This document shows, one piece after another, positions 13,630 to 55,934 of a stretch of DNA of 64,000 nucleotides (position 1 is the stretch's first letter; every line of letters begins with the position of its first letter). The DNA lies in contig QPGO01000055.1 of NCBI GenBank assembly GCA_008632985.1, positions 225,100-289,099 on the forward strand, read 5' to 3'. The DNA is from Psammoneis japonica (Eukaryota). The notes under the pieces were generated by a model. It searched no databases. It saw only the letters and a list, made by a program, of their open reading frames with translations, and had not been told where the DNA came from. The position numbers and the translations under genes were made by a program.

Positions 13630-15311
13630 ACCGCCAGGACCAGACAACGCATGTTAAGCGTTTTTGAATCAAGTGTAATTGAGCTTTATGTAACTTCTCA
13701 TTTTCACTAGAAAGTTTGCTGTGGAGTCTTCTCGCCGACGACTTTTGCAGCTAGCCTCGACACTGAGTCCAACTACTTTCCACGGTTGACTGATCCCACA
13801 TCTAACTGAAGTCATGACATGTCTCTCACTGTCATGTGAGGGCATTTCGCGAAGCGCAAATCTTTCATGTACGGTCTCTACGCCGCTGTTGTCTGTTAAG
13901 AGGGTAAGAGCATTAGTCTGTGGAGCGACTTTCATTGATTCGTGCTTTTCGCATCAACTTGAAAGACGGCAACCATGAGACAGTTTCTCAAGTAGGTCGT
14001 TTCGTCTCGTTAACTCTTTGTTTGACCATCAACAACATGACCCCAAATGGCACGTCGCCGTTGTGAAACTTGCCTGCCATGCCATGCTCATTTTTGCTGG
14101 AATGATCAGGCTTCATCACAAGTGCCACTCGCCCATCACGTTCCCTCCTGTTTTCTTCAACATTCCTTTGACTCTGCTGTGGGATGGCAGAACAGTCCAG
14201 GCTTCCCTGACTGCAAACTCTGCGTGCATGCAGCCCCATCCACCTCAACCAAAGCAACAAGGTCATGAGTTGTGCAGCTGTCCACCACTTGAGGGGATTT
14301 CTCATCTGCTGCATTAAATTTGCAAGTTCTCCTCCGCTTCCCACTGCCGCACCATCCAATCATCTGCTGGGACAAAGTGCAAAAGATGCACAAAAGAGTG
14401 AAAGCCACAGCAGGTGCATGCTGCACATGACCAGAGTGCAATGAACAATGCCGTCCATTGTCATCTTTCACAACTCACAACCTGATTGACATCTTTTGCA
14501 TGTCAGCACACCTGCAGTCTCATCCAAGGAACTGACAGTCTGTGGCAGTGCCTCATTTTCAACTGGAGTGGCTGCTGCAATCAAGTTGTTGGCAATGGAT
14601 CCACAGAGTGATGTGGAAGAGGCGATCAATTTGCCACAGTTGGAATCTGGGAAACCAGCAACACATGGCAAACACATGGCAACAAAATGAACAGGATGAC
14701 CATGCCCAGTGCAGCAAATTGGTTTTGTTCAAGTGCAACAGGGAGACGGTCACTCCAGTGCAGGAGATGAGTGTCAACAGGTTCCTCATGCATTTGGAGT
14801 GGACGTCAGCAGAGCTGGACTCCGCAGAAGAAAAAATTGCCCCAGCTTGCTCCCTGTTCACACTTTTCAGCTGGCGCAGGTCTTCTCTTGGTTGTCCATC
14901 CAGAAATTCTTGAGGTTCTTCCCAATGTTGCAGCAAGAACAGTTGGAAACAATCGCCCAGCTGACCCCATGTGCGTGACAGCTCTGCTCGCATCTTGCAA
15001 GTCATGTCTTGCTGATCTCTTTGCCCTGCCAGAGAAAAAGAAGAGAGCCGCTTGCCTCCCAACATGCTGCTGGAGCTGTGTTCAACCAAAACCGGCTTGT
15101 TGGCAGAACATTGGAGATCACCATGTCCAACTGCAGCGCGCCTCTCTCTCAAGGCTTGAGTGTTCCTCCATTCCTGCTGTCATGATTGACCTCTCTCCAA
15201 ACTTGCCATGGCTTTTGACTGCAGTGCAAGGCATTGCTGCAGGAGCAAATGGGGGGGGGGCACTTGGCAGCATCAATGGCCGATGAGAGAATGCTGCCAA
15301 GCAGACGTGAA

Positions 15312-16544
15312 GATGCATTTTCAGAAGCAGGTGGGAATCCAGGTGACATGCTGGGCCTGCGGAATTCTGCATGCAAGCTCTGCAGCAAAATTGTTGGGTG
15401 ATGAACACAGGCCTGTTCCAGCTCCAGGTGATCTGCTTTTCATTGCGTGAGAGGCCGATTTTCTGCGCAGTTTGGCGCAATCAACTCCTTCAATTTTGAT
15501 CATTTCAAAAATCGAAAGGTGAGTGCACACCCGAAAATGCATGTAAAGTGTGCACTTGCCCTTCGATTTGGCAAAAAATGGATTTGGAAAAAAGCCAATT
15601 GCACCAAATGCACAAATTTCCAAATGATGGGAATCGAACCCGCGCGGAGCACCTGGAGCTGGAACAGGCCCACATCAATGATCGCCAACAGAACATGAGG
15701 CAATTTTGTGAATGCACAAACTCATCCACAATTGAAGCACATCATTTTTTGCTTGGCCAGGAGCATTCTTCAGACATTGAAGAATGTGCCTGGCATGCGC
15801 TGATGGTCTTGCAATTTCGACATGCTCCAGCCCCAGGTGACGCACAAAACAACAATCGACTTTGAACACAATTCATGCATCTTTTAGTGCATGCAGCATT
15901 TTCACATAAAATGCTTGGACAGATTGACTTTTGTGGGCTTCTAGAGTGTGCACATTTAAATGGTTTTTTGAGGGGTGTTCAAGTCCTCATGGGACCTGTG
16001 TCACAAACTTCCTCAGCAGACTCAGCGCTGATTGTGCATCAGCAGAGTTGTGCTGAGATTTCTTTGCAGGTGGAAAACCCACCAAGCAGCATCGTAGAAA
16101 GATGTGTTTGGGTGACATTCAAATGATGGCAACATTTTTGCCGAAAATCATCCATTGTGTCACGAATCTTTTGACGCAATGAAAAACACAGATGGCACAG
16201 TGACAATGATGTTGCAGCACTCACACGAGTCTTGTCAGTGTTGCAAAACATTTGTGTTTGTGTGAATCCATGCTTTTGGTGGTGAAAGATCAATTGCAAG
16301 TTGGGGCCATGCAAAAATTGCACAAATGTCGTTTTTGTGCACGATTTGGTTCACGTGCGGCTGGAGCACGTCTTTCGTTCAACAAAACATCTGGGGTTTT
16401 GCAAAACAGCAAGCCTGGCAGAACAGTTTTTTGGAAGATCACACATCATGGAAACACATGTGTGAAACATGCAATGGATGATAAAAAAACAATTGTGTCA
16501 CATGTCAGCACTGCAAGCTCCCACCCAGAGCTGGGGAACGCATC
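15312..16544. mobile_element. Degenerate ~1.2-kb TIR element, same family as the MITE at 55935-56330
   Basis: Shared blocks (GCAGGTGGGAATCC..., TCAATGATCGCCAACAGAA..., GTCAGCACT...GCTCCCACC); decayed termini; internal copies of GTTCCAGCTCCAGGTG. Confidence 0.7.
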
Positions 16545-16809
16545 TGAGGGTGCGAGATGCTAAAAAACAAAGCCCGCTGCAATCTGTTGCAGCTGATGCA
16601 AAATCGGGCAGTGTCAGCTGCAAGCCACAGCATGAGACAATGACAAAGCAAGTTGCTTTGTCCTCCTTGAATGAACCACCTGTTCATGTCATCTGATTCA
16701 AACTCAACTGTGCAAGAACAACAGCACAGCCCAACAGCAGCAGCGTCGACAATGATGACAGACAAGCAACAAAACAGTGACGACAAAGCACAAACAACAA
16801 ACAACAAAC

Positions 16810-17019
16810 TGGGGGAAGTCTCCAGCCAGTTGCTGGCTGAAAAAAAGTCTGCCATCAACACATCAGGGGGTTTTGCCAGCGCAATTTTGTGTGTGCAAAA
16901 GACGATGAGTCTGTCCAGCGTTCACCAAAACACCCCAACACACAGATTGACAGATGACTCTTTCAATGCAAATTCCACACAAGATTCTTCAGCCAGCAGC
17001 TGGCTGGAGACTTCCCCCA
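16810..17019. mobile_element. ~210-bp MITE
   Basis: TGGGGGAAGTCTCCAGCCAGTTGCTGGCTGAA vs TTCAGCCAGCAGCTGGCTGGAGACTTCCCCCA inverted repeat; flanked by AAAC on both sides. Confidence 0.7.
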
Positions 17020-17557
17020 AAACTGGGTGCCGCCACTTGCAACGCACAACGAGAATCCCAGTGGCGGTCTGTCAGGTCTCCATTGGGAATCAGGAATCCA
17101 TGGCGGCTTGGAGGGAAAACCCCTTGTACAAGTCCTGCCGGTACACACGTCTACGCAATTTTGAAATTTTGATTGCGATGGACAGACTGCATTTGCCCTG
17201 CCTCTTCTTTTCCCGCACGAAAGTGACACGCACTGGTGTCAATCTTGTGAAGTCGCAAATCTGCATGCATTGCACCAATCAGAATGGCGGAAACATCTGA
17301 ACACGAATGACGCAAAATGTGAGGCGATCTATTTAGGGGTTCCGGAAGCAACTGCATCGTCATGTGTTTAAGTACGCTGTTTTTACTCATAAATAACTCT
17401 GTTTAGTGTGACACGATGACGTAAAACAATCCTTTGTCCGTGTCACTTTTTCTGTTGTCGTGAACAGCTGCCTCCACTGATTCTCGTTATCGTTGTATCC
17501 AGAGTTTCTTTCGCATTCTCACCAAAGAAGGGAGTGTGTTTCTATTGTAAATGTAAA

Positions 17558-24832: not shown

Positions 24833-25383
24833 ACTATGAAGGAGTAAACCGATAACTACAGCTTATTGTATCTATGTTTTAGCATTTTTACAGACGCCTT
24901 CTTTCTTCTTCTCCATGAAAATACCGCAGTACTCTGAGACGGTACAATCTGTTGTTTGCTTTTAAAAAGTAGAGATCTTTTGGGACAGTCTCGTCCCCTT
25001 TGATGGGGAGCCACCACTAAATCATCCCGTCACTAATGTATGGGCCACAAGATGAATCTCTCGGTTAAGGATTAACTGTATGAAGACGACAGGTTACTCT
25101 CTGAATACAGGGTCCACTGTCTAGCAAAGCGTGGCCTTCAACTAAGGAGAGACCTGGAAAAATTAAGCCTGGGAGGACGTGTAAAATGTGAACCAAATTC
25201 GACACCTTGATGAAAGCGTTGGAATTTGTGGAAAACTGTCACTGGCCTAGCTAGAAATAAAGATGAAACAAACCATGCATGTTCAATTTAACTTAGATGT
25301 TGTGGCAAACGTCTTTAGAGAAGCTTCTTGTGTTTCTTTTTCTTCTCAGGTGGCTGGACAGGAACTTCTTGTCAAATGACAAT
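24833..25383 (-). repeat. Duplicate of the SERRATE 3' end and downstream flank (39481-39871) with a ~172-bp insertion (24978-25149)
   Basis: Colinear from ACTATGAAGG to CAAATGACAAT in both places. Confidence 0.9.
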
Positions 25384-25790
25384 GCAGAGTTGAGGTGTTG
25401 TCCTGTGCAGCTGGCAATTTGCTGGGTTGTTTTTGAAAAGGTGTCAGCTTGCTGCTGTTTGCCCCCTGTCTTGTCACACACAAAGACAGTGTGCAGCTCC
25501 TCTGAGCACCCCTTGAGCTTGCTTTGCATCTCTGTGGTCACGCAGCTCCTCTGTGCACCCCCCTCTCCTTTTGCAGTCTCTTCTTGAGCCCTGCCCCTGT
25601 TTTTGAGCACATTTGCTGGCCTGCCACTCATCTCAAATGGCTTTGAAGCTGCTGCCAGCATGCTGGGTGCCTGGTTGCTGCCATTGTCTCCAACAGTTTC
25701 AGCATTTTGGGCACGGCTGTGTTGGAGCAACTGCACTGACTTTTTGGGCTTGGGCCTGCAAAGTCACAGATCTCACCCTGCACTGGAGAA
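25384..25790 (-). pseudogene. Copia gag N-terminal fragment, inverted relative to the adjacent element
   Basis: KGCSEELHTVFVCD...QADTFSKTTQQIASCTG resembles the start of diatom Copia gag (KG..EL....YD...QAD.F.KTT..IA.YVG). Confidence 0.55.
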
Positions 25791-25849
25791 GATCAGCACA
25801 CTCTGGTGGGTGTGGAAATGACAGCTCTGCTCTAGAGCAAGCTGGCTTG

Positions 25850-28800
25850 CCTGTCTCTCTTTCACACTGTGATCTTGTCGGTTTGCCCAACATCAATTTT
25901 AGTCTGCCAAAAGATGGTGATTCTGACTGCAATTCTGAGCCAGCCAAGAAAGAGCAAGAAGAAAAAGCACTCAAGTGTGAGTGCAAAGTGGAGCTCAGTG
26001 GCTGCCACAAAAAGTTGAAACAGTTCAAAGAAGAGAACAAGACTGCCACAGTCACCAAGATTCTAGATGACTTCTGCACCAAGCAAATGAAGCAGAGATT
26101 GACAGGTGATCCTGGCTTTGACAAGATCAAGGATGGTCCAATTGAGCCAATGAAAGTGATTCAATTCCTGACACTTGACTCAGTGAGAGGTCGACATCCA
26201 TTCCACATGCTTGCCAAGGCCATGAAGAACACCCTGGAAGTGAGTCAGCAAGAAAAGAATGAGTCGTTGAATGACTGTCTGTCAAGGTTCAAGAACCAAG
26301 GAGATGCTGCCAGTGAAGCACTTGGGGAGGAGATGTTAAATGGACTCATCTTGAACACCAAAGAGTTTGAGGATGCCAGTGCAGGCAAGCAAGAAAAGCT
26401 GAGGAATGCAGCATTCAAGACATGGACAACTTGTCCACTTCCAGAAAACAGCTGCAGCTGCTGTCACAAGAGCCTCAAGAAAAGCTTTGCAGTCTTTTGG
26501 AAGGAATGCGCACCCAAAGACTCTGGACAGGGCAATGGATGTGCTGGTGCTGAACCATCCCTGGGACAATGATCCCAAAAACTGTCACAAGAAGAAGAGC
26601 GATGAATGAAGAGAGGGGAGCAGCAGCAACAACAAGAGCAATGGAGTCTGACAATGCAAAGGACCACCAGAGTCATGCCCAGAAGATTGGCAACAGTGAC
26701 ACAACTGCGCGCCACTGCTGTGGTGAACCAAGTCACAAGTCCCCACAATGCAAGCACATGAGAATGATGTTGCACTTGATGACTGGCGCAAGAACACTGG
26801 ATGGAACAAACTGGGTGCCAGGGGACAGGCAGCGAGCCATGCACAGGCTCAAGGTGGCAATGAAAACCACTCATTGGCTGGCAGTGATGACACGTGAGTG
26901 TCACCACCAGTGCTGGATCTGCTGGATCAACATGTTCTGCCAACAGCAGAGGAGCAGGATGGACTGGACTGCAGCTGGTCAACATCAAACCAGAGACAAG
27001 TGTGATCCAAGCCAATGCAGGCATTGAGAGAGATGAAATCATCCTCAACAATGGCTCAACCCTCAGTGTGGCAGCAAGCTGGAAGTCAGTGCACAATGTG
27101 CAACAAACAAAGACCAACATTGATTTGTCCATGAACACAAGAGTGGACACCCCAGACAAGAAGCGGGCTGCACAATGCCCTGATGGGGGGGACATGAAGC
27201 TTGGATCTGAGGGCACAACAGCAAACATCCCAAGTTGAAGGATGTGAAGAGCAGATGCTGTGTGACATGCAATGACAGAGTGGTGGATGAGCTCTGGCTG
27301 CTGAGCAAAAAAAAACTGGCAAACAACAAGAAGCGGCATTCAAGGCCAATGATGTTGGGCTGCACATGCTCACTCTGAGCCAGCAATTCTTTGGCTGCAT
27401 CAAAAAATTCCAAGAGAATGAGTCACATGTGAGCATGTCATTGAAGAAGAAGAAGATGATGATGAGTGAGAAACAGAAACACAACACAAAACAGAGTGCA
27501 CCCAGAACCACCCAAAAGCCAAGCAAGTGCTCAGGCTGCACCAGCAGCATGAGGCTGGAACACCTGGTGCAAGAGATTTCAAGCAATTTTCATGTTCCAA
27601 TCTGGTGAAGAATCTGTTCATCACACCAGAAGATGTTGACAAAATGGCAACCATTTGGGGTCCACCCCTGTGGATGTGTTGAAGGTCAAGACCAAGCGTG
27701 CATGTTGTTCCCATGAGAGGAACAACATGACAGCCATTCCATCTGAGATTTGTGAGAAGCAGAGAAAAGGTGTGACACTCTGCATTGCTTGATGCCATGG
27801 AGGCATGTGCAGAGCCAAGCTGCTGCACAAGATTGACAAGATGATCAAGTGCAACCAAGTGTGAGACTGAAGCCCAAGAAGCACACTGGTTTGCACACAG
27901 TGCACTGGACATGATTCTCTGACAGTGCAGCACGGCACTGTTCAAGATTGACTTCATTGAGTGTGATCCCGAATTCAAGGCTGTCCAGCCAAAGTGCCAG
28001 ATGGCATGAGTTTGGAGTTGCTGGATGTCAACACCAGTGACCATGTGCCAGAAGCAGAGCATTGGGGCCATCAAGGAGCAAACCTGGGCTGCTGCGCACC
28101 ACCTGCCATGCAAGATGATGCCCAAGTTGATGTGCAAGCATGCCGCAATCAACAGGGTGCTGCAATGAAGGAACCTTGTGACTGGCTGTGACAAGCACTT
28201 TGAGCTTGCCTTTGGAGAATTTGTCCCATCCCACATTGAGAACAACCCTGCCAACACAGTGGGGACATGTTTGTGGCATTGGCAGCACACAACACTTTGA
28301 CTCACCCAAGGGTGGCAACTGCACTGTGAACCTGCACACAAGGAACCTTCTGAGCCCCTGCAAGTGCACCTCAGCTCCACTGACTGACACACATGTTTTG
28401 AGTGGTTGAGAAGATGGCATCCTCCCAAGGCAACAAGGGCTTCAAGTTCACCGGGAAACACAGTGACGACACAATCTCCGTGGTGCTGGTTGGGCTGCAG
28501 GAGTGGGGCTGGACAAGAAAGGTGAAAGCAACAGCAACAGCAAAGACAAAAACAAACAAGACAAAAATGACATGAACATTGTGACAGGTGCAGAGTCAGA
28601 TGACAGTGAGTGCAAACATGACTCAGCAGATGAAGAGCGCAAAGAAGCATGCAGTGCATTGGCAAACAAAAGTTTCAGCCCCAATCACCTGCATGCAAAC
28701 CAAGTGTCAGATGAAGAGTGCTGCTCTGCAACTGTGAAGAACAAGATGATGATCCATTGGAAGATGAAAATGAACACCATGAAGGCAATGATCTGTCACA

Positions 28801-30700
28801 GAAGACAATGAAGAACCCCAAGAAGATGCTAAATGGGAAGGTGGAAGAATGGCAAAAGAAGCAAGAGATCTGCCAGGATGAGTGACACGGGGCCAAAAGT
28901 GCCTCAACACCATGTTGCGGATCAGAGCACCCATGAGAGAAGCCAAGAGCGAGAAAGTTTAATTTGCTGGAGTGGTGGACAGCACCAAGAAAGTGCAAGC
29001 AAAGTGCCATTGAATGCTTGCAACCTGACATGAGCCCCAATCCTGAGGATCATGTCAAACATGACATGCAAGCCAGAAAGGTTGTGGCCCAATTCACACG
29101 TGAGACCAATGACTGAGTTTGAGTGGGGGAGGCTGTCTCCTTTGCCCAGCAACACCTGCTGCATGAGGGCATTGAAGAACTTGACCAGAAGGGGTGTCAA
29201 ACAGCTGCACAACCAAGTGTGCTTTGCACCAACATCAGTTGAGGACATGACTCTGAGTGAAAGGGCCAAGGCCACAACAGCCTTGGTGCTATTTCTGATG
29301 GAGAAGCAAGATGGTTGGGTCAATGGGCACATGGTTTGCAGTGGGAAGCCAACCAGAGAATGGCTTGACAAGGGTGGATCAGCCAGCCCAATGGCATCAT
29401 TGGAAGGAGCGCTGATGACAGCCATTGACGAAATTGTGGAAGAGCATGACATCATGAGTGCACTTGTTCCAAACACATTCATTCAGATGTTGACATCAGA
29501 GCCTGAGCAAGGTGAGGACTGGACAGTGATGAAGCTTGCAGGAGCATTGGCAGACATGTCAGTGAACATTGATCCCAACCTGTGCAGACCATGTGTGGTT
29601 GCAGAGAAGGGGGGGGAAGCAAGAGAGTCATCCTCTGTGTCCAAGTCATCAGAGCTGTTTTTGTGGCACAAGAAACTTTGCAAGGACTTGGAAAAGAACA
29701 GGCTTGAGTTTGTCCCATGCAATCTGTGCATTGTCAACTGAGCAGTCAATTGCAAGCAGCGCACAACACATTTCCACATGGGCAACCTTTTGATGAGCCA
29801 CGTCAACCCAAAAGTGAATGACAAATTCCTGAGATGACTGAACAAGCTGCACAGAAGTCATTGCAAGGCCATGGCAACCTCAGGGAAGAAGCAAGGCCAC
29901 CTTGGAATGACCCTGTGTTTTGCCACCAAGGGCAAGGTGAAGGTTGACATGACCAAGTGTGTTCAGAAGATGACCAATGAGTTTCCAGAAAAGATCAAGA
30001 TGAGTGTGGGTGCCATGGCAACACCAGCAGGAGACAACATGTTCTTTGACACCAGTGGCATGAGATTGCCAACCAAGAAAGCAGTGAAACTCCACACATG
30101 GGCACCCAAAGGACTGCTCACATCCAAGAGAGGCTGGGTGGATGTGTGCCCTGCTGTTGCAGCACTGTGCACTTCAGTCAGAGAACCCACCAACAAGGGT
30201 TGGGGGCAGTTGCTCTGTTGCATCAAGTGCCTGAACCAGGAATGAAATGAAGCCACTGCTCTGAGCGCAGATCACCTCTGAGCAACAAAGTGGTGCATGG
30301 ATGCATCATTTGCCATGCAAGCTCAACACCCAAAGCAGCATGCTGAAGCTGGGCTTGTTGGAGTTGATGATGCAATGACTGTGATGATCCTGTGGACAAA
30401 GTCATTTGTGGAGCACAAGGGGTGTCCAGTCAACAAGAATGTCCTGCATCAGGACAAGAACAAGAGTGCCACCCCCGCTGGAGAGCAATGGGTGCAGGAG
30501 TGCCAGAAAGCACTCAAGAGCACTCAACACTCAGCATTTCTTTGCCACCAAGTTGAGAAGGGCAACCTCAGAGTGCAGCATTGCCCAGCTGATGACATGT
30601 TGGGAAACTTGATGACAAAGCCATTGCAGGGCAAGAAGTTTTGAAAATTTGAGCAAGCCATTGAGGGTTGTCAGCAGCAGCCATGGCAGGCAAGGTGCCT
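25850..30700 (+). mobile_element. Degenerate Ty1/Copia (CoDi-like) LTR retrotransposon internal region
   Basis: Order gag (ESLNDCLSRFK), zinc knuckle (HCCGEPSHKSPQC), protease (IILNNGST), integrase (CDPEFK, DHVPEAEH), RT (FLMEKQDG, SASPMASLE), RNase H (DASFA, AEAGLVGVDDAM, HCPADDMLGNLMTKPLQG). LTRs not identified. Confidence 0.88.
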
Positions 30701-31261
30701 GCCTGTCCTGCAATGTCAGATGAGAATTCTGCCTGATGCATGTGGGTGAAAGATCCTTGCAAGCACTGAAAACCATGCAGAGCCAAGACATGAATGGGTT
30801 GCAGCTCAAGTCATCAAAGATTTGTCCATTGAGAACAAGCATTCTTGACGATGACAGATCAGGTTTGCAGTCTGACACATGACGACGTGTCTGCTCAAAG
30901 CTGGCCAACTGCTGGCACATGACAGAATGGCCAAAGGACCAGGGCAGGAGAACCAGCAAAGCTGAAGAGAAAGATTTGCAGATCTGCTTGCTTGAAACAA
31001 GGCATTGGAGAAAGCACAGAAGATTGGAGCCCATGGCTCAATTTTAAACACAGCTTGGAGCAAAGAGAAATCCACAGACCAGATGCTTTAGATTGCTGTC
31101 AGCTCTCATTGGATGAAGAGAGAGAGAGAGAGTGACAGGGAGAGTGAGAGAGACAGAGAGAGAGAGAGACAGCAATTGAATTTGAATGGTCTTGGTCAAC
31201 TTGTCCGTCCTCCTTTGGATCTTTTGATGCAACAGCGCCCACCATGTGAACAACAGCAGCC

Positions 31262-31313
31262 AGCAGCTGATGAAGCCACTGCCCGTGAAAGTCTCATTGT
31301 CCTGACTTCAGCC
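31262..31313 (+). ncRNA. Decayed hammerhead copy
   Basis: CTGATGAAGCCACTGCCCGTGAAAGTC...GACTTCAGCC. Confidence 0.55.
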
Positions 31314-32304
31314 AATGTTGTTGTGCCTGCTGTTCACTGAAACAGCTGGACAAATGTCTGATTGAGTGGCTCTGCCTCAGCTGCTGGTGTCATTTGTTTG
31401 TCACATTCAACGGAAATTGGCTTTGCCAATTTTGATCATTCCAGAGAGAGAGAGGCAGAGAGAGAGAGAGAGAGAGAGTGCAAAGGAACCACCCTCCCCA
31501 CCGCATGCCATGCTCTGCCATGCACTGCATGAAGCTGTGCTCCCAGAGGAGTTTAGCGCCAACCTCATCCATTGCAAGCGATTCATTGATGATGTCTTCA
31601 GCATTTGGAAAATCACCGAACCTGCCACTGACACCGCATGTTGGAGGGCCGCATTTGCCTCCAGACTGAATGACTGCAAAATCAATTGGGTCATGAGCCC
31701 GCAGTCACTCCAATCCAATTTTATGGATCTCACCATCACACTCCAAGGCTCCCACATCCACACCACTCTCTATGAGAAAGAGATGAATCTGCATCCATGC
31801 ATTCCACCACACTCAGCTCACCCACCTGGAGTGCTCACTGGCCTGATTGTGGGCACGCTCTTCCACTTTAAAAACCTTTGCTCCAATCCATCCGACGCTA
31901 AAGCAAAGATGAAATCACTCTGCCTGCGCCTTCTTGCTCAAGGCCACAAACCCAGCAAGCTGCAACCCATTTTCCAAAAAGCATGCAACCACTTTTTTTG
32001 AAACGAGACCACAGTGGAAGCACCTCCAACCAACCCACCCATCTCCCTCCACATCCCCCATCATCCAAATGACCCACCATCTGGCAAACTGCAGAAGATT
32101 TGGAAAGAAATGATGGCCTCTCCACCCTGCTCCCAACCACCAGCCAACATCTGCAACCATGCCCAGCAACGCATTGGCCTGGACCATGTGATCATCTGCT
32201 GCAGCCGATCACGCAACCTTGGCAACCTCCTTTCGCACTGCATCCTTCACGTCTCCAATGCCCTCGCAGTTTTGTCCTGCCGGGTTGCAAACAGGGAGGC
32301 CACT

Positions 32305-32335
<31 letters not shown>

Positions 32336-32444
32336 CGCGCGGCAAACTTGTGCCAAAAAATTGGTCGATCAAGTCCACCCGCCCATCCTCCACCCCTTGG
32401 ATCCTTTTGGCGCAACAACTTCAACCACTTCAACAACATCAGCC

Positions 32445-32490
32445 GGCCGCTGATGAAGCCACCACAAAAGTCTCACTCCTGACTTCAGCC
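32445..32490 (+). ncRNA. Decayed hammerhead copy (GAAA box lost)
   Basis: GGCCGCTGATGAAGCCACCACAAAAGTC...GACTTCAGCC; differs from the 35761 copy by CG->CA changes. Confidence 0.6.
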
Positions 32491-32623
32491 AATGTTGTTG
32501 TGCCTGCCATTTGTCAAAACAGTTGGACAAAGATCCAAGCTGGCAGCTCTGCCTTGGCTGCTTTTGTTCTTTGTTTGTCGCATTTGATGGAGAATTGGCT
32601 GCGCCAGTTCTGTTGTTTTTCAA

Positions 32624-33622
32624 ATGTCGAAAACTGCTGAACAGAGCCAGGAGTTTTTAGCTCTGCAGGAGGAAACCAACGACCTCATCTCTACAACCCA
32701 ACTGGCTTTCAAAAAGCAAGTTGTCCAAGCCACCAAGATTGAACTCCGAGTCATCCAAGAAGAAATTTTGGAGTCGTGCGCGAAAGCCATCCGACTCGCA
32801 ACCGAAAGTTTCGTTGTGGCCGACAGCATCAACACGCCTGTCGACACTGCAGTGGTCACCCCACTCGACCGCTGCCATGAGACGTCACTCAAACACGTCA
32901 TGGCCCGCGACCTCAATGCCTTCCTTGCCAAGCACAAGACTGCAAACACCGTCCCTGACCTGCCTCAACCGCTGGTTGCCCCTGCCGCTCGACTGACACA
33001 AGAAGAGGACCGAGCTGGCGACTCCTTGTTCCTAACGCAAGAACCCGCACCAGCACCAGCAGCTCCGCAGATCACCGCCGCACAACAGAAAGTCGAGACT
33101 GAGCTCAGCAAGATTTTCTGAGCATTTGAATGCATCTTCGTGTCTCCCTGGGAAACCCACCTCAAAACCAAAAAGAAACACGATGTCAGCCTCCAGCTGA
33201 AGAAACTGAACAAAGAACACTTTGACACAGAGGCCACCGAACACGCCAACATGGAATTTGACAATGAAGCCGCCGTCGACCCTGCCACCCTGCAAGAACT
33301 GATCCGCAAGGAAACCGAGAAAAACACCAAAAAACTCTCCCAACAGGTCAACTCGCTTGCCCAACGAATCAAGTCCATGAAGGCTCAATCAAACACCCAG
33401 AGGGGCCGCACTCACACCGCCGGCGCCTCATCACAAAAAGAAAAAGGCAAAGGTGCCTCATCGGGTCAACCGAGGAAACAACGTCCTCAGCGCGACCGCG
33501 AAGCCGACGATGCCGACAACGACACCGCCAGCGCCAACAAAAGCAATCGCCGTCGCTCCAAATCGAAACAGCCATCGAAAAAGAAGCAACAGCACTCCAG
33601 CACCAATCGGAACAGGCGCTAG
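32624..33622 (+). pseudogene. ORF1 of the Penelope-like element (helical/coiled-coil, basic C-terminus)
   Basis: Two in-frame ORFs (32624-33121, 33140-33622) separated by one TGA, likely from CGA. Confidence 0.7.
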
Positions 33623-33714
33623 AGGCGATCCACCGCCGAATCCACCGCACACACGGATTCGTCGCCGATCCATCTCGCACAACCCACCACAACGCCTGCA
33701 CCCACCTCCAACAC

Positions 33715-35633
33715 ATGCCTGCCTGGTGCCACTTCAGCAGGCCCTCTCACCTTGCCTTCCATGATTGCACCACAATGAAACAACCACCAAAAAACCTTCA
33801 ATCACCACTCGGTCTCGGCTTGAAATTGATCCCAACACCACGCTTCACCAATGACGGGAAGTCCTCCAAGATCCAAGAACACACACTCGGACGATTCAAG
33901 CAAGACCTCGACAAGCATGAGCATTTTGCCAATGCCCCAATTGACAATGCTGACGGAGATTACAACCCCCGGATGTGCCTCCGGTCCAATTGGACACCTC
34001 CCTCTTGGAAACTCACCAACATCATCAAATGCCGCTGCACCACTTTCAAGACACAAGTCACCAAGCTGCTCGTGAAACGCCATGGCAGAACCAACCTCCT
34101 GCCTCACCAACGTCGCGCCCTCACCCACCTTCACAAACAAGATGACTTCATGATGGCTCAATGCGATAAGAACTTGGGACCCGCCATCATCGAAAAGACT
34201 GAACACATCAAGATGGCATGTCGCGACCACCTTAACAACACCAACGCATGTCGTTTCCTCAACGAATTTGAAACCCGATTCTATGAACGCGGCATCAAAA
34301 ACCTCCTCAACGATTGGCTCATGACATGCAAAGCCAGCCTCACCCCCATGGAACGCAAGCACCTCAAAAACTGTCTCGAAACTAACGAAGACCCGTTCCC
34401 TGTCTTCTGCCTCACTCCAAAGGTGCACAAGCCCCCGCCGCTACGATCTCGACCAATCGTTTCCACCAGCGGCAGCCCACTCTACGGCTCAGGCATCTGG
34501 GTAGACGACAAGCTCCAGAAGATTGCTCGCCACCAACGTTCACACTTCAAGAGCTCCCTGGACCTGAAACAAGCACTCGTCCGGATGGAGTTGCCACCGA
34601 ACTGCCTCCTCTTCACATCCGACGCCGAGGCCTGCTGCTCCAACATGCCCACCAATGAAGCACTTCGATTGATCGCCGCCTGCCTCCGACGTCATGAAAA
34701 TGACTGCAACGATGTGCCAACGGACGCCCTCATCAAAGCCCTCCGAATCGTTGTGGAAAACAATGTGTTCACATTCGGAGATGCAACCTGGCACCAGCGC
34801 AATGGAACCTGCCATGGGTGCACCACCCGCCCCTCCATGCGCTGCCTCATGCTGCGCACTTCACGAAGACACACTCCTGGAGGAGTTTAGCTCCCAGCTG
34901 TTTTATTGCAAACGATTCATTGACAACGTCTTTGGCATTTGGCGCATCACCGACTCTGCCACCGACTCCGCCACCTGGGAAGCATTTGCCTCCAGGCTCA
35001 ACGACTTCGACATCACCTGGATCACGAGCGCCCGAAGCTGCCAAGTCAACTTCATGGACCTCACGATCTCACTCCAAGGCTCCCACCTGCATGCCACCCT
35101 TCATGAAAAAGAAATGAACCCACACATGCACATCCCGCCTCACTCAGCTCATCCGCCTGGAGCACTCACCGGCCTCATCATGGGCATGCTCTTTCGCTTC
35201 AAAAACCTCTGCTCCGACACTGACGATGCCAAAGCGAAAATGAGACTGCTCTGCCTTCAACTTCAAGCTCGAGGCTGCAAGCCCAGCAAACTGCAACCGC
35301 TCTTCCACAAGGCACATGACCGCATCTTTGGCAACGCCACCGGAACAATCCAAGCACCTCAGTCAAACCCCATCTTTCTGCACATTTCCCATCATCCGAA
35401 TGATCCGCCATCAAGTGAACTGCAGCAAATTTGGAAAGGTGCCATGGCCACCCCTCCCGGCTCACAACCCCTCTCAAACCTTCGAAATCACGCTCGACAA
35501 CGCATCGGCCTTGACCGCATGATTGTCTGTCATGGCCGCTCACACAACCTCGGAAACCTTCTGTCTTGTCACAAACTTTGCATCTCCCATGGCCCCCCAG
35601 TTTCGTCCTGCCGGATTGCAAACAGGGAGGCCC

Positions 35634-35666
<33 letters not shown>

Positions 35667-35671
35667 GGTGA
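33715..35671 (+). pseudogene. Penelope-type reverse transcriptase, frameshifted, no visible endonuclease
   Basis: DKNLG, PKVHK...RPIVS..GSP, NNVFTFG...Q.NG, AMGAPPAP, KRFIDN(D)VFGIW, VNFMDLTI, IPPHSAHP; frameshift near 34810. Confidence 0.88.
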
Positions 35672-35760
35672 TTTGAACCAATCAATCGAGTCAACTCGCC
35701 TGTCCTCCACCACTCGGATTTTTTAACGCAACAACCTCAACCACGTCAACAACAACAGCC

Positions 35761-35808
35761 GGCCGCTGATGAAGCCACCGCGAAAGTCTCATTCTCCTGA
35801 CTTCGGCC
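35761..35808 (+). ncRNA. Minimal type I hammerhead ribozyme motif
   Basis: GGCCG-CTGATGA-AGCCACCGC-GAAA-GTC(loop)GAC-TT-CGGCC: conserved core boxes, stem I GGCCG/CGGCC, stem III GTC/GAC. Confidence 0.75.
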
Positions 35809-35959
35809 AACGTTGTTGTGCCTGCCACCCACCGAAATAGTTGGATAAATGTCCGATTAAGCAGCTCTACCTTAGCTGCTTGCATTCTTTGTTTGTCACA
35901 TTTGACGGAGAATCGGCTGCGCCGATTCGTTCGTTCATTCGAGAGGAGAGAGAGAGAGA

Positions 35960-37800
35960 AAGTGCAAAGAGCCAAGTGAGCTTGCCAGTTGCCTCTGCAT
36001 GAGGTGGCATGAACCAGGCAGAAAAAGGATGGTGCCAATGGAGCATGTGCACAAAGAATGCATTGTGAAGTGGGTTCCAGAAGCTGAAGAATGTGTGCAT
36101 GCCAAGAGCAAGCTTGCCAGCTGCCTTTCTGTGAGGTGGAATTAACCATGCCAGAAAAGGATGACACCAACGAAGCACACACACAAAGAATTCATTGTGA
36201 AGTGGGCTCCAGAAGCTGAAAAAAGTGTGTCTGCCACAGAGCTGATGTTCTCTGCTCATGACAATGAAGAAGAGATTGTGCAAGACATCAAGGTTTGCTG
36301 TGCATGCACACACTTGACCCCAAGGAGTGCTGGCAAACCATTGGGTGCAACAATGCAAAACAATGGAGGACATGTTGCAGCATTTGTGGTCCATCACATT
36401 GTCAGGAATCAGCCAAAGCAGGGATGATGGATGAGACACCCGTCACTGGTTCAAGGGGTGGCAACCTGTGGTTGACCTCAGACAGATGAGATGTTGGCCA
36501 TTTGAGCAAGTGTTCAGAAGCGGGCTGTCCTGCCTGTGGCATGGGCGCACAAGGGGCATGTGGTTCCCTCATGAAGAGGGTCACCAATCACCCTGAAGGT
36601 GCTGCAAATCATTGTCAACTGGCTCAAGGAAGTTGGCATCATTTTTCAACCATGACATCAAGATCGCACACGCAAACTTGCAAAAGATGCACAGAATGGG
36701 TTCTTGATTTTGACTCCCAACCAAGAAAATTGGTGGCTGGACCAAAGAGCTGCTCAGTGCTCTGTCATGTCATGACATCATGAAAAAATTGTCAAGTCTG
36801 TGTTGGGTGATTTGCAATGGTTGTGCAAGGCACAACGGACTTGCTGGATGACATGGCTGATTTCTCTGATGAGGGACAGCATGCCAGTCTGTGTTGCAGC
36901 AGCCTGGAGACCCTTGAAGTTGGAGGAGCACATGTGCAAGCAAGGTGAAAACTTGTGCGGCACTCTGGAAGAAAAAATCTTGGTTGCCTCATTCCAAGTT
37001 TTTAGAGTGCCAATGAGAGCAGCAACATCTGGATCAGGGTTGCTGCAAGGACCCAGGCATGCCGGGGAAAAAGCATTTTTTGGCTGCTGATGCCACACAC
37101 ATCGATGGCTGCTCTTTTTTGAGAATTTCATCTGTTTTTGATTTTCTTTAAGTGCACTTTGATCTCACTTTTTTTGTTTGGCAGATCAACCTGTTTGATC
37201 TGTCGGCACCAGTGGGCGCCTGCGCCGCTGCTTTTTTGTTGCAGGTTTGAAGCTGCGCGGCGAACTTCCAGCCAGGCAAACCTCAGCTGACCAAGCAGCC
37301 AGGGTGAGTGTGGCAAGCAGCACAGGAGAAAGCTTTGCAAGATTTCATTTGGCAACATCAACTTGCTGGTTCAACAGGAGCTCTTCACTCTAAGGCCGAT
37401 GAGCACTTGGCCCGTGACGGAGCTCAGTTGCTCAACTCACTCGATGAGCATCTCGCTCACTCTGCCCACAGAGTGCAAGAGCATCCGCAAAGCCCGACCT
37501 TTGGCAGTTGGAGGCACACATGCCATTGCAGCCGGGTGATGCCGATCTTGGCCAACTGACATGTGCTCCTGCCACACCTGGTGTGCTGGGGGTGTGGGCT
37601 GGCTTGTTGCCGGAGTTGCAGGGTGGAAGAGCAGCAGCACTTAAAACTCAATTTTGGGTTTTTTGTTTTGGTTCAACAAGAGCTCTTTGTGCTCCAAAAG
37701 CACAAGCCAATGAAGTCTCATGCGGCGCAAGATGACTTGTCGTGAGTGGGTGGCTGGGTGGGCTGCTTCGAAAAGCTCAACTGTGCACGCATGAACAAAG
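35960..37800. repeat. Unclassified TpA-depleted degenerate element with ~130-bp internal duplication
   Basis: GCTTGCCAG...CATTGTGAAGTGGG.TCCAGAAGCTGAA repeated at ~35980 and ~36112; TA nearly absent. Confidence 0.55.
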
Positions 37801-38235
37801 ACCCACGGCACCGCAATTGATTGTTTGCGCCCTCCAATTATGACATTTTTATTCCAGTCGTAAACCAAAACAGTGTTGTGTGCAGCATGTTCTCATCGAT
37901 GCTAAAGTTGCACCTCGCAATGATTTATGATCGTCATTTAAGCCCACAGCCTTTTAATCCTGTAATGTCTCTTGTGTGGCATTTTGTCTCTACAGCACTT
38001 TACAATGTCCTTCCCCACCGCAACCACAAAACGAATAATGCATTTGTACGAACCAGCACAGACCACTCTGATGAAAAATTTACATTTAAGCCCTCCACTT
38101 GCCGGCTTAAGTCATTTATAAGCCCAGACACGTTTTCAATTAGAAAAATGACTCTGGTGAGGATGACTCTGGTGTGGCATTGTACTCCTCACAATTTTCT
38201 CAACTCGTTTTTTTTTTTGCGAGACCCCGAACAAC

Positions 38236-42168: not shown

Positions 42169-42574
42169 GCTGGAAAAAAGACAAAGTCACCAGAAGTAGC
42201 TAAGTATTGAAGTGTAGACTGCTAAGGCAGACGCGGCAGCATAACAAAAACAGCAACAGCGATAACAACACAATAACATGTAACAGCGATGCGATGTTCT
42301 GTTCGTTTTGGTTTCCCTCCATACGTTGAACTTTGTGAGGGAAAAGATCGTACGATGGACAGAAAAATACGGCTCATGGCCTGTTTCGTAGAAACACACT
42401 GCAAGAATACAGTAGGACAATTTTTGGCGCGAAACTAAATAAACATCTTCAGTGCCGACGAATCACATGACAACTCCAAAAATAAAAAGGCTGTTGACAA
42501 CCAACAACAAAAACCAAAAGAACCATGAGCAGCCGTGTCTGTGGACAAGCTGTCAACAAGGGCGGTCCATCAAA

Positions 42575-45500
42575 ATGGCAGCGTCAAATGGGACACACGG
42601 TCATTCCAAGCGCAAGGCAGAAAAGAACGAACAAGAACCGGAATGAGCGCAACGCCGTGCCGAGTGTCATCGTAAACGTCATGGTGAAGCCATTGACGTC
42701 AAGTTTGGGTGTGAACGATAGAATCACACTGCATCGACGGAACCGAGATGTCATGGATGGTTGCTCAACATGTTGCCAACGGCAAGTCAATGCCGTGCGT
42801 GTGAATTGTGAATGGCGGGAGTCTCAATCACACGCCCGTGTGTTTCTTGTGCTCTCGTCATTGTCATCCATCGACAGCAGCGTCGGGTGCTTCTTTTGGA
42901 AGTGGAGCAGACGATGGCTCTCCGGATGGTCCAGAATGTGCCAGATTGATTCATCTGCCGCAGGGAAAGAGCTCAGCATTCACATGCGAGATTGAAATGT
43001 CGGAGCACGGAGCACGTTTGTAGAGTCAAGAAATGGTCGAAATCCACATCTACATCCTGTCACTTCAGCCGGGATCGAGGACAAGTCATGTGAGACTGGG
43101 ACTCCATTGATGCTCCGTGCGTCATTGGGATGCGCGCTCAGAATCCCAACATCTGCTGCGTCCCAAGATGGGAGTCGCAAGTCGCGCGCCTTGTCGGAAT
43201 TGCAGCGCATCAACCGTCTGGCCAAAGGAGTGCATCTTAGCAAACATGATGTGTCACACAAACGCATCTTCATTTCTGTCGCTGCGAACGCAAAGTCCAA
43301 GACAGAAATCGTGGCCATGTTCAAGATGGACGGTGGCAAAGGAGAGAACAGACCTTTTGAATGAAGCGGAGGCTTCCGGCCAGAAATCTGAGTGCAGCAG
43401 CATCTCCCCCGAGAGCTGCTTTAACATGACAAGCAAGCGTTTTCCGGCATTGAGGAGGTGCTCAGCCCGTGCGGCCAATTTAATCAAGGTCCCACATTTG
43501 TGCTCCTCAGCGGCAGCAAACCGTTGCCGCACCTCTGTCGCGCTGTTCCAAGCTTCAATTCGTTCCCGATCATCACTTTCCCTTTTCCACCTGGTCCTCA
43601 TGCAACCCTTCTTTGATGATTCTGCCCGCGTTGAATTGGGAGCCAACGGCAGCACAGCTCTGCATGGAAGCATGCTTCCACATGGGCGTCATTTCCTTCC
43701 CCAAGCGCGTCTCTCATGCCAGACATTTGCAGGTGCCGGTTGGAAATCTCGATCAAGACGAAGCTGTTGCGTTGTGCGACTTTGGATTTGGTCACCAGTC
43801 GGACTGTGTCGTGGGCAAGCGCGACGCATCCTGACTTTGGAATGTCGTTCCTCTGAGGTGATTGCAAAACCGATGAAACTTCCATCCTTTCGAACCAAAA
43901 AGAAATTTGGGGCGATGATGATGAGCTGATGAGTCCGGTTGTTCGTTGTCCTGGCTCTTGTCATTGTGTTTGCACTGAAATCGATGCACACGATCTGGCA
44001 ATTGTTGCCGCCCTGACGGATGCCGCTGCGGCCGCTGCTCTTCCTTCTGCTGTGAGCCAAGCGGGCATCCCTGCGTCACCGAGCAGCGTCACCATGTTTG
44101 ATTCCACATTTGACGGAATGAATTCCATGGTTGCGGGATCTTTGGGGGACGAAATGTCAACATCCGCATCACTTCCGATTCTGCGTGCATTTGTCGGAGC
44201 TTGGCTTTACGATGCCTTCGAAGCAAACAGTCAAGTTGCAGACGACATGCTCCACAAAGTGCACTGTCTTGTGTCGACGCCAGAGCCACTGTTGAATGAC
44301 CCAACTCTCCATCGAGTGATCCAATCATTGATGAAAGCGACTTTCTTTCGACGTCTTGGTGAACTGGAAAGGCTTGTTTGTCATGTTGTTTGTGCGACAT
44401 TTCGCAAGGTGACAGTCGCTGCGAATGAGAGCAGCCTCTCCGACGCTGCGGAGCATGTCAACTTTGTCATTTCTACGATTCGAAATCTAAGCGGAGCGTC
44501 CGAGGGTGACCAAATGTTTGCAAGACTGGGTCGCATTGAGTTGCGTGCAAGCACCTGCTTCTCGCATTGTCTCTTTCTTGACGAACACAACTGCGGTGGG
44601 ATTCATCCCGAGCGCCTCCAGTTGGAGGAGGGCGAAAGCGATTGGTTGATTCCGACTGAAGATGAGGGCGGTGTGCCAATCTTCCCAACGGTGGCAAGCG
44701 GTTGGAACATGATGCATCATTTGGGGAGCGAAATTGCACAAGATTGCTTCCGAGTCATTGTTGGTCACTTTTCCAAGGATGTTCTCCGGAAGCAGATTCA
44801 GCTTGATGAGCGAGACAAAAATGCCATGTTGGAGGACGATGCTCTAAATGCATGCAAGAAGAAATTGACATCTGAGCACTTTGCTGACTGCCTGACGCGA
44901 GCTGTAAGAGATCGAGGAGGAGGGAGGCGGTCCGAAAAGTTTTCTAGAGTCACACCCGGAACGCATCTCGTGCTCACCAATCCCACATTGGAGTTCATCA
45001 AGAGTGTCATGGTTGCATTGGAGTTGGATTCCGACGTACAAAAAGGAAGCACATGCATTGAAAAAGAGCTTGCTAGCTCAGACCGGAGTTCCAATGCTGC
45101 CAAGTGGGAAGACCCTTGCGCCTCTTTCATCTTGCCCGACATGTTTTGCATGGAGTGTCATGAATGTCGTGACGTGAATCTCTGTGATCTTCCGCCACTG
45201 AATGAAGAAGAGAGAACTCAAGTGCCAAGTCTCCTGGACGGAACTTGCAATCGCTAGAGGCGTGTCTACAATGCATCTCATGTGGTCGACTCCTTCTTCG
45301 TTACAGAGACAGTGGGAATGTGAAGACTGCGGCACCCCATGCTGTTCGCAGGACATGGAACGAAGACTTGCAGATCTTTGCAATCGAAAAGCCATTTGTC
45401 ATCAGTTGCAGGACGTGCGGTGCACCAAGACTGGTGCAGTTGGGACGAGAGCCATGTCACGGCAGTCCGATTGTTCGTCTGAGTTACAGCAGGACATCCC

Positions 45501-45603
45501 TCGGGAACAGGCACTGTCACAGTTGAAGATTGTCAATTGTCTTGCTTCGTTTCATGGCTTGGAATGGTCGGCCGAAATGACGCTAGAGCTGCTCAAACTC
45601 TGA
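42575..45603 (+). pseudogene. POLE: DNA polymerase epsilon catalytic subunit, C-terminal half only, mutated
   Basis: DUF1744-like CTEIDAHDLAI, LLNDPTLHRVIQSLMK, FLDEHNCGGI; C-terminal Cys motifs WEDPCASFILPDMFCMECHECRDVNLC and WECEDC...HQLQDVRC; several frameshifts and stops; no N-terminal polymerase domain. Confidence 0.85.
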
Positions 45604-45849
45604 TGTGGTGCCGATGCACAACGAGGTGGTGATTTCAGATGAAGACACGTCTCCAATCTAGACGAGAGTCCATTTTGACAATCTCAGCACGATTCCAGAT
45701 TTTTGGAAAGTCAAGTGTGTAAATTAGGAGACTTTGGCTTTGTCCTCTCGCATCCATGTCCCTGTCTACTGGCTCGCTCGAGCGACACTCGTCGTTGCGT
45801 TTGCATCTCAACTTTCGAATCAATTTCATTGCAGAAAACACTTCTAAAC

Positions 45850-48130: not shown

Positions 48131-48489
48131 AATAACACGGTGACAGAACACCCATCACATCATACAGCCAAGGTGATTCCACGAGAGCACGCTTTCTGCT
48201 TTCTGCTCACAACATCATATCCCTGCTTATTTTTCACGAGCTCTAATTTGCACACGAACCACATGCTGGTTCCTGTGCATTTACGTACATTTTATACCAG
48301 TCGCATCGTAGTGGGGTGTTGTTCGCCGGCCCTGACGAACTCTTTCTTTGACATAAAATATTTTTCACGACGGCCGGCACAGACTGCCGGCTCGGTGGAC
48401 AAGTGTTAAGTGGTACAAACACGTAGATCCTACGTCAGATTTACAGTACTCAGATTTATTCGGTACAAATCTACGCAGCATTTTGCGTA

Positions 48490-54799: not shown

Positions 54800-55520
54800 C
54801 ATTCCTTTACCCTGCCGGCCTCCTGTCCGACCACCCCCTTGAATGCCCCGCCGACGTAGGCGTCCAACTCACACCCGGCTCTGCACCGCCTGACGCCCCA
54901 TCCACCCACCAATTTTTGGCCATGGACGTCACTGTGCCGCCCGCCACCCCGCTTCCTGCACCTGGTTTGCCCATCCCTGAAAACCCACTTGACAAGGCTC
55001 ACCTCAGCAGCGCACAGGACAAGCTCCTCGGCTGCTCTGCATCATCTGCTCACGGATCCGACATCATCGATGCCATCAACCAAGCCGGTCTCTTCCTTCT
55101 CCCTTTCATCCTCGACCACCTCGGCGGCATTGGCTGCCATTTCCATGCCTTTTTCTTCGGCACCTCCACCACAACTTCCTCTTCCACACCACCCCTTCCT
55201 CCCAAACCACCCTGGACAAGTCCTGCCTCCTTTTCCAACTCTCAGCCATCCTTTTCCGCCTGCACCAACTCACTCCTCGAACCCTCCGATCTCCTTGCCA
55301 ACTCCAACTCGGCCTGGAAACAACTCTCTCAAGACCGCTTCGGCTCTTCACACCATTTTCAGCACCATCGCTTTGGGCCTCCCCTCCCTTTGCTCTCTCC
55401 ACCCATCTTTCTGCGCATCAAGCTCTTCTCCTCCGCCACCCTGCCATTGCCAACTCCTCCTCTCTCAGCCATCTGTCCGCACTCTCGGTCCACCCTTTTT
55501 CTCCCCACGCTGCCATGAGA
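54800..55520 (+). mobile_element. 3' fragment of a non-LTR retrotransposon with restriction-like endonuclease (CRE/R2-type), degenerate
   Basis: (R)PADV...LAMDVT...K...LLPFILDHLGGIG spacing typical of RLE domains; pyrimidine-rich, TA-depleted. Confidence 0.55.
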
Positions 55521-55934
55521 CCCAGGCCTTGAGCACTGTGACTTGAAACTGGCATGGCAGGCGCACTCCGGATGAGCGCACAGACCATCACCTTGGTGAC
55601 AACACGGAGAAATTGTCAAAAACCCGCCGGAGCCGACGATGACATTGACGCAGCAGACAAGGTGTCCAAACATTCCTTGTTTCTTGGACCATTGCAACAG
55701 AAGCTCCATTGGACCCTCGTCGATGTGCCGTTGCAATCATCCATTTGGAGACGTGCAGTTTGGTGAGAAATGTTGAAACACACCGCTCCGCTTTGTCGTG
55801 ACACCATGTTGCATGCAGACGACGCATCAACTCGTCATTTGCGGATTTTCGGCACCCACTGAGTTAAAGTCCGAGTTCATTAAAAGGTGAGTAAGTTGAA
55901 AATCAAAATGGTGTTGTCAATGCATCCGAGGCTC

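Follow-up and report, generated by a model that had tools for sequence, protein, structure and literature searches.

Hypermutation confined to TpA has been described for integrated giant-virus and virophage DNA in the chlorarachniophyte Bigelowiella natans (Mettrop et al., bioRxiv 10.64898/2026.01.13.699255, 2026). In that preprint, two integrated viral regions acquired 231 de novo mutations, of which 230 are A-to-G or T-to-C changes at TpA; TpA-depleted coding sequences are enriched in reverse-transcriptase (RT) and DDE domains, and an ADAT2 homologue is put forward as the responsible enzyme. The main text of the preprint makes no mention of flanking context, CpG or diatoms, and its supplements, which list mutated sites, may bear on the flanks. 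Literature searches yielded nothing further on hypermutation directed at TpA, on its occurrence in diatoms or on its preferred flanks. Here we describe a stretch of 64,000 bp from Psammoneis japonica (contig QPGO01000055.1, positions 225,100 to 289,099; hereafter the window, numbered from its first base), in which sharply bounded blocks, one of them holding a degenerate Ty1/Copia-type retrotransposon remnant, have lost almost all of their TpA (TA) through transitions on both strands. The few TA dinucleotides that survive follow a pronounced hierarchy of flanking bases.

The window shares with B. natans the confinement of A:T-to-G:C transitions to TpA, the TG and CA products, the action on both strands and the restriction to discrete regions with neighboring genes spared; one target here is a host-gene pseudogene. 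The evidence in B. natans consists of de novo events in mutation-accumulation lines, whereas the window presents the end state only. The depletion is deeper here, at an observed/expected dinucleotide ratio (o/e) of 0.00-0.09 compared with the Rho of 0.45 given for the B. natans giant-virus region, and, unlike the regions described in the main text of the preprint, the blocks cover a host-gene pseudogene and show CpG decay alongside. The named best matches of both homology searches reported below (Copia and polymerase epsilon) are all from diatoms, namely Cylindrotheca, Thalassiosira, Fragilariopsis, Nitzschia, Conticribra, Pseudo-nitzschia and Epithemia, and not from chlorarachniophytes. TpA hypermutation of the B. 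natans kind, of which there is a single, very recent description, is therefore probably present in a further lineage, the stramenopiles, and the flank hierarchy adds a new detail to it. The pattern also resembles fungal repeat-induced point mutation (RIP), a genome defense that likewise introduces transitions at one dinucleotide of mobile DNA, on both strands and in sharp blocks, and thereby alters dinucleotide ratios. However, RIP makes TpA from CpA by C-to-T changes, whereas here TpA is destroyed by A-to-G changes.

A two-state hidden Markov model (HMM) of TA density, applied to the whole window, called nine TA-depleted segments that together make up 29,170 of the 64,000 bp and have a TA o/e of 0.00-0.09. 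Of the eight normal segments, seven lie at 0.49-0.71 and one, of 436 bp, at 0.29. Block boundaries are sharper than 100 bp, and TG and CA are raised to 1.5-2.0 in the depleted DNA; in a table of dinucleotides by 1-kb windows the patches with a TA o/e of 0.00-0.10 have TG and CA ratios of 1.5-2.3. The largest contiguous depleted block (25317..37838, 12.5 kb, with sharp edges; TA o/e 0.05, CG 0.37, TG 1.89 and CA 1.51) contains the Copia remnant, two copies of an RT-like element and further unassigned DNA. The other depleted segments are 1..434, at the window edge (TA o/e 0.04); 5983..7936, in the first unit of a 2.6-kb tandem duplication (TA o/e 0.04, CG 0.18), and the matching part of the second unit at 8608..10562 (99.5% identical, with the same surviving TA); 14012..17126 (TA o/e 0.04, CG 0.37), which has no Pfam match; 42484..48132 (TA o/e 0.09); 54858..55864, with no TA in 1,007 bp; a short segment at 56301..56776; and 60627..62684 (TA o/e 0.01, CG 0.42), a mutated repeat copy designated B. 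The unmutated copy of this repeat, designated A (57400..59200; TA o/e 0.6-0.8), serves as an ancestral proxy for copy B.

The blocks differ in their content of CpG. Most depleted blocks have a CG o/e of 0.17-0.42, but CpG is largely kept, at an o/e of about 0.7, at 42484-48132 (0.69), 54858-55864 (0.73) and 56301-56776, and the stretch at 32-36 kb has a CpG o/e of 0.61-0.93 by 1-kb windows. No 1-kb window that is poor in CpG without also being poor in TA was found in the 64 kb. The existence of TA-poor blocks that retain CpG, and never of the reverse, indicates that TA loss is the faster of two separable processes. The slower one is the decay of CpG to TpG and CpA in the same blocks, an outcome to be expected if silenced repeats carry methylated cytosine. 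Decay of 5-methylcytosine at CpG matches the conversion of CG to TG or CA seen in these blocks (39 of 57 sites in the A/B pair), but it leaves the loss of TA unexplained, and it lags behind that loss in three blocks.

The mutational origin of the depletion is seen directly in the A/B pair. Copy A (57400-59200) and copy B (60800-62700) are 75% identical in nucleotides and 89% identical in purine/pyrimidine code, a rise which shows that the changes are transitions only. All 50 aligned TA of copy A have been lost in copy B (25 to TG, 18 to CA, 2 to CG and 5 to other dinucleotides), and the aligned region of copy B holds a single TA. Counted on both strands, A-to-G changes affect 43 of 93 adenines that follow T, compared with 13 of 193 after A, 17 of 164 after C and 10 of 158 after G. 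Among the 57 CG sites of the pair, 22 became TG, 17 became CA and 11 were kept, and this CpG loss has no preference for a 5' T. Mutagenesis at WA motifs of the polymerase eta type was considered and rejected, since AA is unaffected (AA o/e of approximately 1.0-1.4 in depleted DNA; in the pair, 8 of 72 AA changed to AG or GA). As a separate observation, adenines of the pair that precede T without following one became G at 20 of 136 sites, compared with 20 of 379 for the other adenines outside TpA; this excess may represent weak off-target activity.

Duplication alone did not trigger the process, as copy A and the normal part of the tandem duplicate are untouched. The tandem units (5947-8579 and 8574-11205; 2.6 kb, 99.5% identical) are each part depleted and part normal. 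In the normal part 35 TA are retained unchanged in both units, whereas the 12 differences between the units include one TA-to-CA change, which lies in the depleted part. This behavior differs from that of RIP, which mutates all duplicate copies, and from the situation in B. natans, where the described target is single-copy. The largest block runs uninterrupted across several unrelated elements. Targeting is probably regional, and we infer that a silenced chromatin state would direct it.

With transitions as the only changes, the purine (R) or pyrimidine (Y) class of each base flanking a TA is ancestral, so that the contexts of surviving TA can be compared directly with those of ordinary TA. 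A first-pass annotation of this DNA, made from its letters alone, had claimed that the survivors are mostly YTAR (TTAA, CTAG, TTAG and CTAA) and had proposed tabulating survival over all NTAN contexts, N being any base; both the claim and the non-uniformity that it implied were borne out. The 94 survivors in all depleted segments comprise 54 YTAR, 21 YTAY, 16 RTAR and 3 RTAY, whereas the 1,463 TA of normal segments comprise 285, 421, 309 and 448, respectively (Fisher p=7e-15; chi-square p=6e-18). When the second tandem copy was dropped, the counts in the same order were 51, 21, 16 and 2 of 90. Relative survival falls from 3.2 for TTAA, 3.0 for CTAG and 2.7 for CTAA/TTAG, through 1.0 for CTAC/GTAG, 0.9 for GTAA/TTAC, 0.8 for ATAA/TTAT and 0.5 for ATAG/CTAT, to 0.3 for GTAC, with no survivors at all for ATAC/GTAT (240 sites in normal DNA) and ATAT (97 sites in normal DNA). 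By the base that follows the A (position +1), the survival factors are 0.31 for T, 0.50 for C, 1.66 for G and 1.81 for A; a T at -3, which is equivalent to an A at +2, is 1.8-fold enriched among survivors. Expressed as the negative logarithm of survival, the classes stand at 1.49 (YTAR), 2.82 (YTAY), 2.78 (RTAR) and 4.83 (RTAY), values that fit the proportions 1 : (1+r)/2 : r with r of approximately 3.2. If the two strands were attacked independently with a preference for a 3' pyrimidine, the order YTAR >> YTAY = RTAR >> RTAY would be expected. The flank bias of survival is thus confirmed and statistically strong.

The remaining TA might instead have been created afterwards, through C-to-T or G-to-A changes, or might belong to small younger insertions. 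Clusters of survivors at 35838-35873, 45720-45725 and 45946-45953 do suggest small unmutated islands. However, the survivors with no other TA within 100 bp are more biased, not less (20 YTAR, 5 YTAY, 5 RTAR and no RTAY among 30). In addition, the CpG-retaining blocks, which we read as more recently silenced, hold 26 YTAR, 16 YTAY, 9 RTAR and 1 RTAY, compared with 22, 2, 5 and 1 in the CpG-poor blocks. The half-sites YTAY and RTAR therefore account for 16 + 9 of 52 survivors in the former and 2 + 5 of 30 in the latter, an excess that fits sequential loss. We consider an origin of the survivors as new or inserted TA very unlikely.

The same bias is found in the Copia region taken by itself. Its nine survivors (25317-31100) are 25833 CTAG, 25900 TTAG, 26064 CTAG, 26337 TTAA, 28830 CTAA, 28960 TTAA, 29290 CTAT, 31045 TTAA and 31089 TTAG, of which eight are YTAR. 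The chance of at least eight in nine is 5e-6 at the YTAR share of 16.9% found among 16,878 TA in 80 relatives of the element. The seven survivors named in the first-pass annotation are all present, and 29290 CTAT and 31089 TTAG are additional to them. Six TA at 25248-25316 belong to the normal flank.

The element itself lies at 25904..30668 on the forward strand and is degenerate, with frameshifts and in-frame TGA codons. Homology searches returned 86 near-length and 47 full-length homologues, most with PF07727 (RVT_2), at identities of up to 44%. In tblastn searches with the 47 full-length homologues, residues 39-1625 of P0199 are colinear over 25904-30668 in frames 2/3/2/2/3/3. By this alignment the element follows the gag-protease-integrase-RT-RNase H order of Ty1/Copia, and it is a gag-pol remnant of that type. 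A Pfam scan of its mutated frames gave no match, and a self-comparison by BLAST and in purine/pyrimidine code found no pair of long terminal repeats (LTRs) for it. Tyrosine is carried by 60% or more of the homologues at 30 columns; in these the element has Cys in 13, His in 10, another residue in 7 and Tyr in none. Compared with the homologue consensus, the element also has a second-codon-position excess of A-to-G changes outside TpA (D>G 7 versus G>D 1; N>S 5 versus S>N 0; E>G 4 versus G>E 1; K>R 5 versus R>K 4), which may likewise be weak off-target activity.

Relatives of the element were collected as 80 environmental loci with an RT alignment from a metagenome scan that is biased to intact copies, and these Copia-clade loci have a TA o/e of 0.28-0.98. 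Four short stretches in three of the loci (L066:892-1859 and 2824-3283; L058:237-780; L029:1-589; 2.6 kb in total) are TA-poor, with an o/e of 0.03-0.13; 3 of their 12 survivors are YTAR, numbers too small for a replicate. Contigs from sequencing run X1, at a word depth of approximately 60, reproduce 25230-31100 with 0 differences; X1 may be the source of this DNA and so is not counted as independent. In the same run the Copia family is multi-copy, with 417 contig pieces at 80% likeness, of which 280 are less than 90% alike, and with a summed word depth of up to approximately 980 compared with approximately 60 in the single-copy flanks. The 441 variant places comprise 62 A>G, 57 C>T, 106 G>A, 81 T>C and 135 transversions. 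Among the 40 variants listed, TA is restored in none and CG in 2, and the best-supported ones are private to this copy, which suggests that other Copia copies are TA-depleted too.

These data bear on the possibility that a low content of TA and CG is native to the blocks and results from compositional selection, as in many RNA viruses, or that the pattern is a sequencing artifact at modified bases. Joint suppression of CpG and UpA is common in viruses, and modified bases can cause systematic miscalls on some platforms. However, catalytic and other conserved tyrosines are replaced, the frames are broken by frameshifts and stops, the intact relatives have the normal TA content given above, and copies A and B differ also by indels. 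The exact match of the k-mer contigs argues further against an error of base calling or assembly. Either form of this explanation is scarcely credible.

The process reaches beyond mobile elements. At 42484..45600, on the forward strand, Pfam recognized the C-terminal half of DNA polymerase epsilon (DUF1744 and zinc fingers), 5'-truncated and frameshifted, with diatom homologues at up to 46% identity. This copy is TA-depleted with CpG kept, which indicates that host-derived pseudogenes are hit as well, and its truncation would fit a retrocopy. Its conserved tyrosine columns hold Cys in 7, His in 7 and Tyr in none, so that the two proteins together give 20 Cys, 17 His and no Tyr. Since Cys records TA to TG and His records TA to CA, their near equality shows that both DNA strands were hit.

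This equality also bears on A-to-I editing of transposon RNA by an ADAR-type enzyme, fixed by reverse transcription. Both the Copia element and the 5'-truncated polymerase copy could have passed through RNA. Sense-strand T-to-C is, however, as common as A-to-G at the tyrosine codons, which excludes editing of the sense RNA, and the depletion is continuous over 12.5 kb that include several unrelated elements together with the intervening DNA. ADARs favor a 3' G, whereas a G at +1 is protective here, being enriched among survivors. In its favor, ADARs are described as preferring a U 5' of the edited A (bioRxiv 10.64898/2026.01.13.699255). Taken together, we judge an RNA-editing origin extremely improbable.

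The adenine that is attacked can be sought only at YTAY and RTAR sites, as YTAR and RTAY are identical when read from either strand. The first-pass annotation had proposed the A of 5'-TAY-3' as the preferred substrate, which predicts that YTAY becomes TG and RTAR becomes CA. Outcomes in this direction outnumber the opposite ones by 15 to 9 in the A/B pair and by 7 to 4 at tyrosine codons that follow a pyrimidine; the total, with the two copies of the RT element included, is 25 of 41, or 0.61 (95% confidence interval 0.45-0.76). Counted per adenine, the pair shows A-to-G changes at 31 of 57 A that precede Y and at 12 of 36 that precede R (p=0.057). An estimate from composition, in which 50 intact relatives serve as the ancestral proxy and TA and CG are treated jointly, puts the TAY direction at 0.67 and the corresponding value for CpG at 0.56. 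The earlier statement that YTAY sites of the pair at 57 and 61 kb mostly became TG is weakly right, with 11 of 18 TG, 5 CA and 2 other.

Several results weigh against the A of TAY as substrate. The proportion 25/41 is statistically indistinguishable from 0.5 (p=0.21), and it falls marginally short of 0.76, the value expected under a pure +1-pyrimidine model with the rate ratio derived from survival (p=0.04). The two RT-element copies are split 3 to 3, the RTAR sites of the pair gave 4 TG and 4 CA, and none of the 6 YTAR sites of the pair survived. A test at codon boundaries showed no skew (odds ratio 1.5, p=0.59), and the CpG-retaining blocks have no excess of TGY-type products (421 versus 412, strand-symmetrized). 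The survival classes, moreover, are scaled to ancestral TA densities that are proxies taken from normal DNA or from relatives. The proposal is only partly supported.

The lack of a significant skew is what would be expected if the mutator bound the palindrome RTAY as a duplex and changed either A equally, with half-sites bound less well. Such a mutator would account equally well for the order of survival from YTAR through the half-sites to RTAY, and the even split at RTAR, the codon-boundary test and the CpG-retaining blocks are all in line with it. On the other hand, three partly independent estimates (the outcome total, the composition estimate and the comparison of A before Y with A before R) lean alike in the TAY direction. 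We regard duplex recognition as unlikely, although it deserves serious consideration. In a mirror-image model, the purine two bases 5' of the T-A step's A, as in R-T-A, would decide, and YTAY would become CA and RTAR would become TG. The same order of survival is predicted, but the outcomes do not agree (25/41 compared with a prediction of 24%, p=5e-7), and a purine at -2 is not preferred in the pair (23 of 56 versus 20 of 37). Its probability is close to negligible. Attack on the A of TAY is favored about 2:1, although it is not proven. The motif is an extended one, best represented as (R)TA(Y), with YTAR as its refuge.

Taken together, we consider it fairly probable that the blocks arose by block-wise TpA hypermutation of both strands, dependent on the flanks and directed at the A of TA, with adenine deamination as the putative chemistry. 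Sharply bounded blocks (dead retrotransposons, repeats and one host-gene pseudogene) have been hypermutated at the DNA level on both strands, with A:T of TpA converted to G:C, giving TG or CA, almost to completion. RTAY is lost first, above all ATAT, ATAC/GTAT and GTAC, followed by YTAY and RTAR, whereas YTAR (TTAA, CTAG and TTAG/CTAA) is lost about threefold more slowly per site; owing to this slower loss, YTAR makes up the majority of the remaining TA. The data show the depletion and that it arose by mutation, the involvement of both strands, the restriction to transitions and the order of survival by flank, whereas the strand whose base is attacked, the chemistry and a targeting by chromatin state are inferences. 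Attack on the A of 5'-T-A-3' would be favored about 2.4-fold by a 3' pyrimidine and about 1.3-fold by a purine two bases 5', values that derive from survival and from the outcome split of 0.61-0.67 and that depend on proxies and small counts. As for the chemistry, an enzymatic deamination of adenine to hypoxanthine, which would be read as G, is most likely.

TadA and ADAT2 deaminate A34 of transfer RNA in a U-A-C-G loop, with U 5' and C 3' of the target A, and deaminases of this type include engineered DNA adenine base editors. The A-to-I chemistry, putative here, and the resemblance of T-A-Y to U-A-C are common ground. The analogy to the UAC context of TadA-type deaminases that had been drawn earlier is loose, however: a pyrimidine at +1 is favored, but TAT is no less prone to loss than TAC, and the strand assignment depends on the 25 of 41 events. 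A further point against it comes from amphioxus ADAT2, the one natural ADAT2 shown to act on DNA, which is described as preferring GAA for adenine, not TA, and TCG for cytosine (PMC10354150). A Pfam scan of window ORFs (open reading frames) turned up no deaminase domain among those scanned.

A broader reading is that diatoms and chlorarachniophytes share a TpA-specific, adenine-editing DNA defense, old across the algae of the stramenopile-alveolate-rhizarian (SAR) group, with the flank fingerprint as a property of its enzyme; this is possible, but we would stop slightly short of endorsing it. If true, such a defense would be the mirror image of fungal RIP, with TTAA, CTAG and TTAG as refuges, and its fingerprint could be used to identify the enzyme and to date the silencing of repeats from the ratio of the remaining TA classes. 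RIP has long been regarded as a fungal peculiarity, and the saturated TpA signature in the window points to a much wider distribution, among algae of ecological dominance, of dinucleotide-directed mutation of this kind. The flank hierarchy is a specificity fingerprint that narrows the search for the enzyme, for instance by comparison of ATAT with TTAA substrates, and it constitutes a built-in clock in which RTAY is lost first and YTAR last.

The depletion also has consequences for annotation. Depleted blocks lack TAA and TAG stops and so carry overlapping long ORFs in several frames, such as one of 424 aa at 27400-28674 on the reverse strand; these spurious ORFs would be taken for genes in ORF-based annotation. 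Conversely, mutated repeats are not recognized by direct Pfam scans and escape annotation. When 96 ORFs of the remaining depleted segments and of 54.8-62.7 kb, including the normal copy A, were scanned, no convincing Pfam family was found, and the only matches, three weak sub-threshold ones, were taken as chance. A self-comparison of the window recoded as purines and pyrimidines found no repeat pairs beyond those found by BLAST.

Next to the Copia remnant, direct repeats of 1.1 kb each lie at 31479-32610 and 34813-35928. They were considered as LTRs, and this was rejected in favor of two mutated copies of an RT fragment: their translation resembles the thumb-side part of reverse transcriptase, although it is not recognized by Pfam. 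Both copies are mutated; they are 74% identical in nucleotides and 90% identical in purine/pyrimidine code, and at 10 sites TA is retained in one copy. They flank an ORF of 540 aa (33268-34887, forward strand), also not recognized by Pfam, and (GA)n-rich tracts are present at the ends of the RT element (31100-31180 and repeats of it).

The DNA between the depleted blocks contains genes of normal composition. Four of these are intact-looking, namely a TYW2-type methyltransferase (20672-22336, reverse strand), a DUF6824 protein (23912-24754, forward strand), DUF6824 being a diatom family, a SERRATE/Ars2-like protein (39799-42186, reverse strand) and an MMS19-like HEAT protein (49575-52046, forward strand), whose ORF of 823 aa was assigned to an MMS19-like family in a protein atlas. 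Finally, a tandem array with a period of approximately 60-66 bp and copies that are 85-88% identical occupies 38540-39077; it lies in normal DNA, adjoining the SERRATE-like gene, within long ORFs of both strands.

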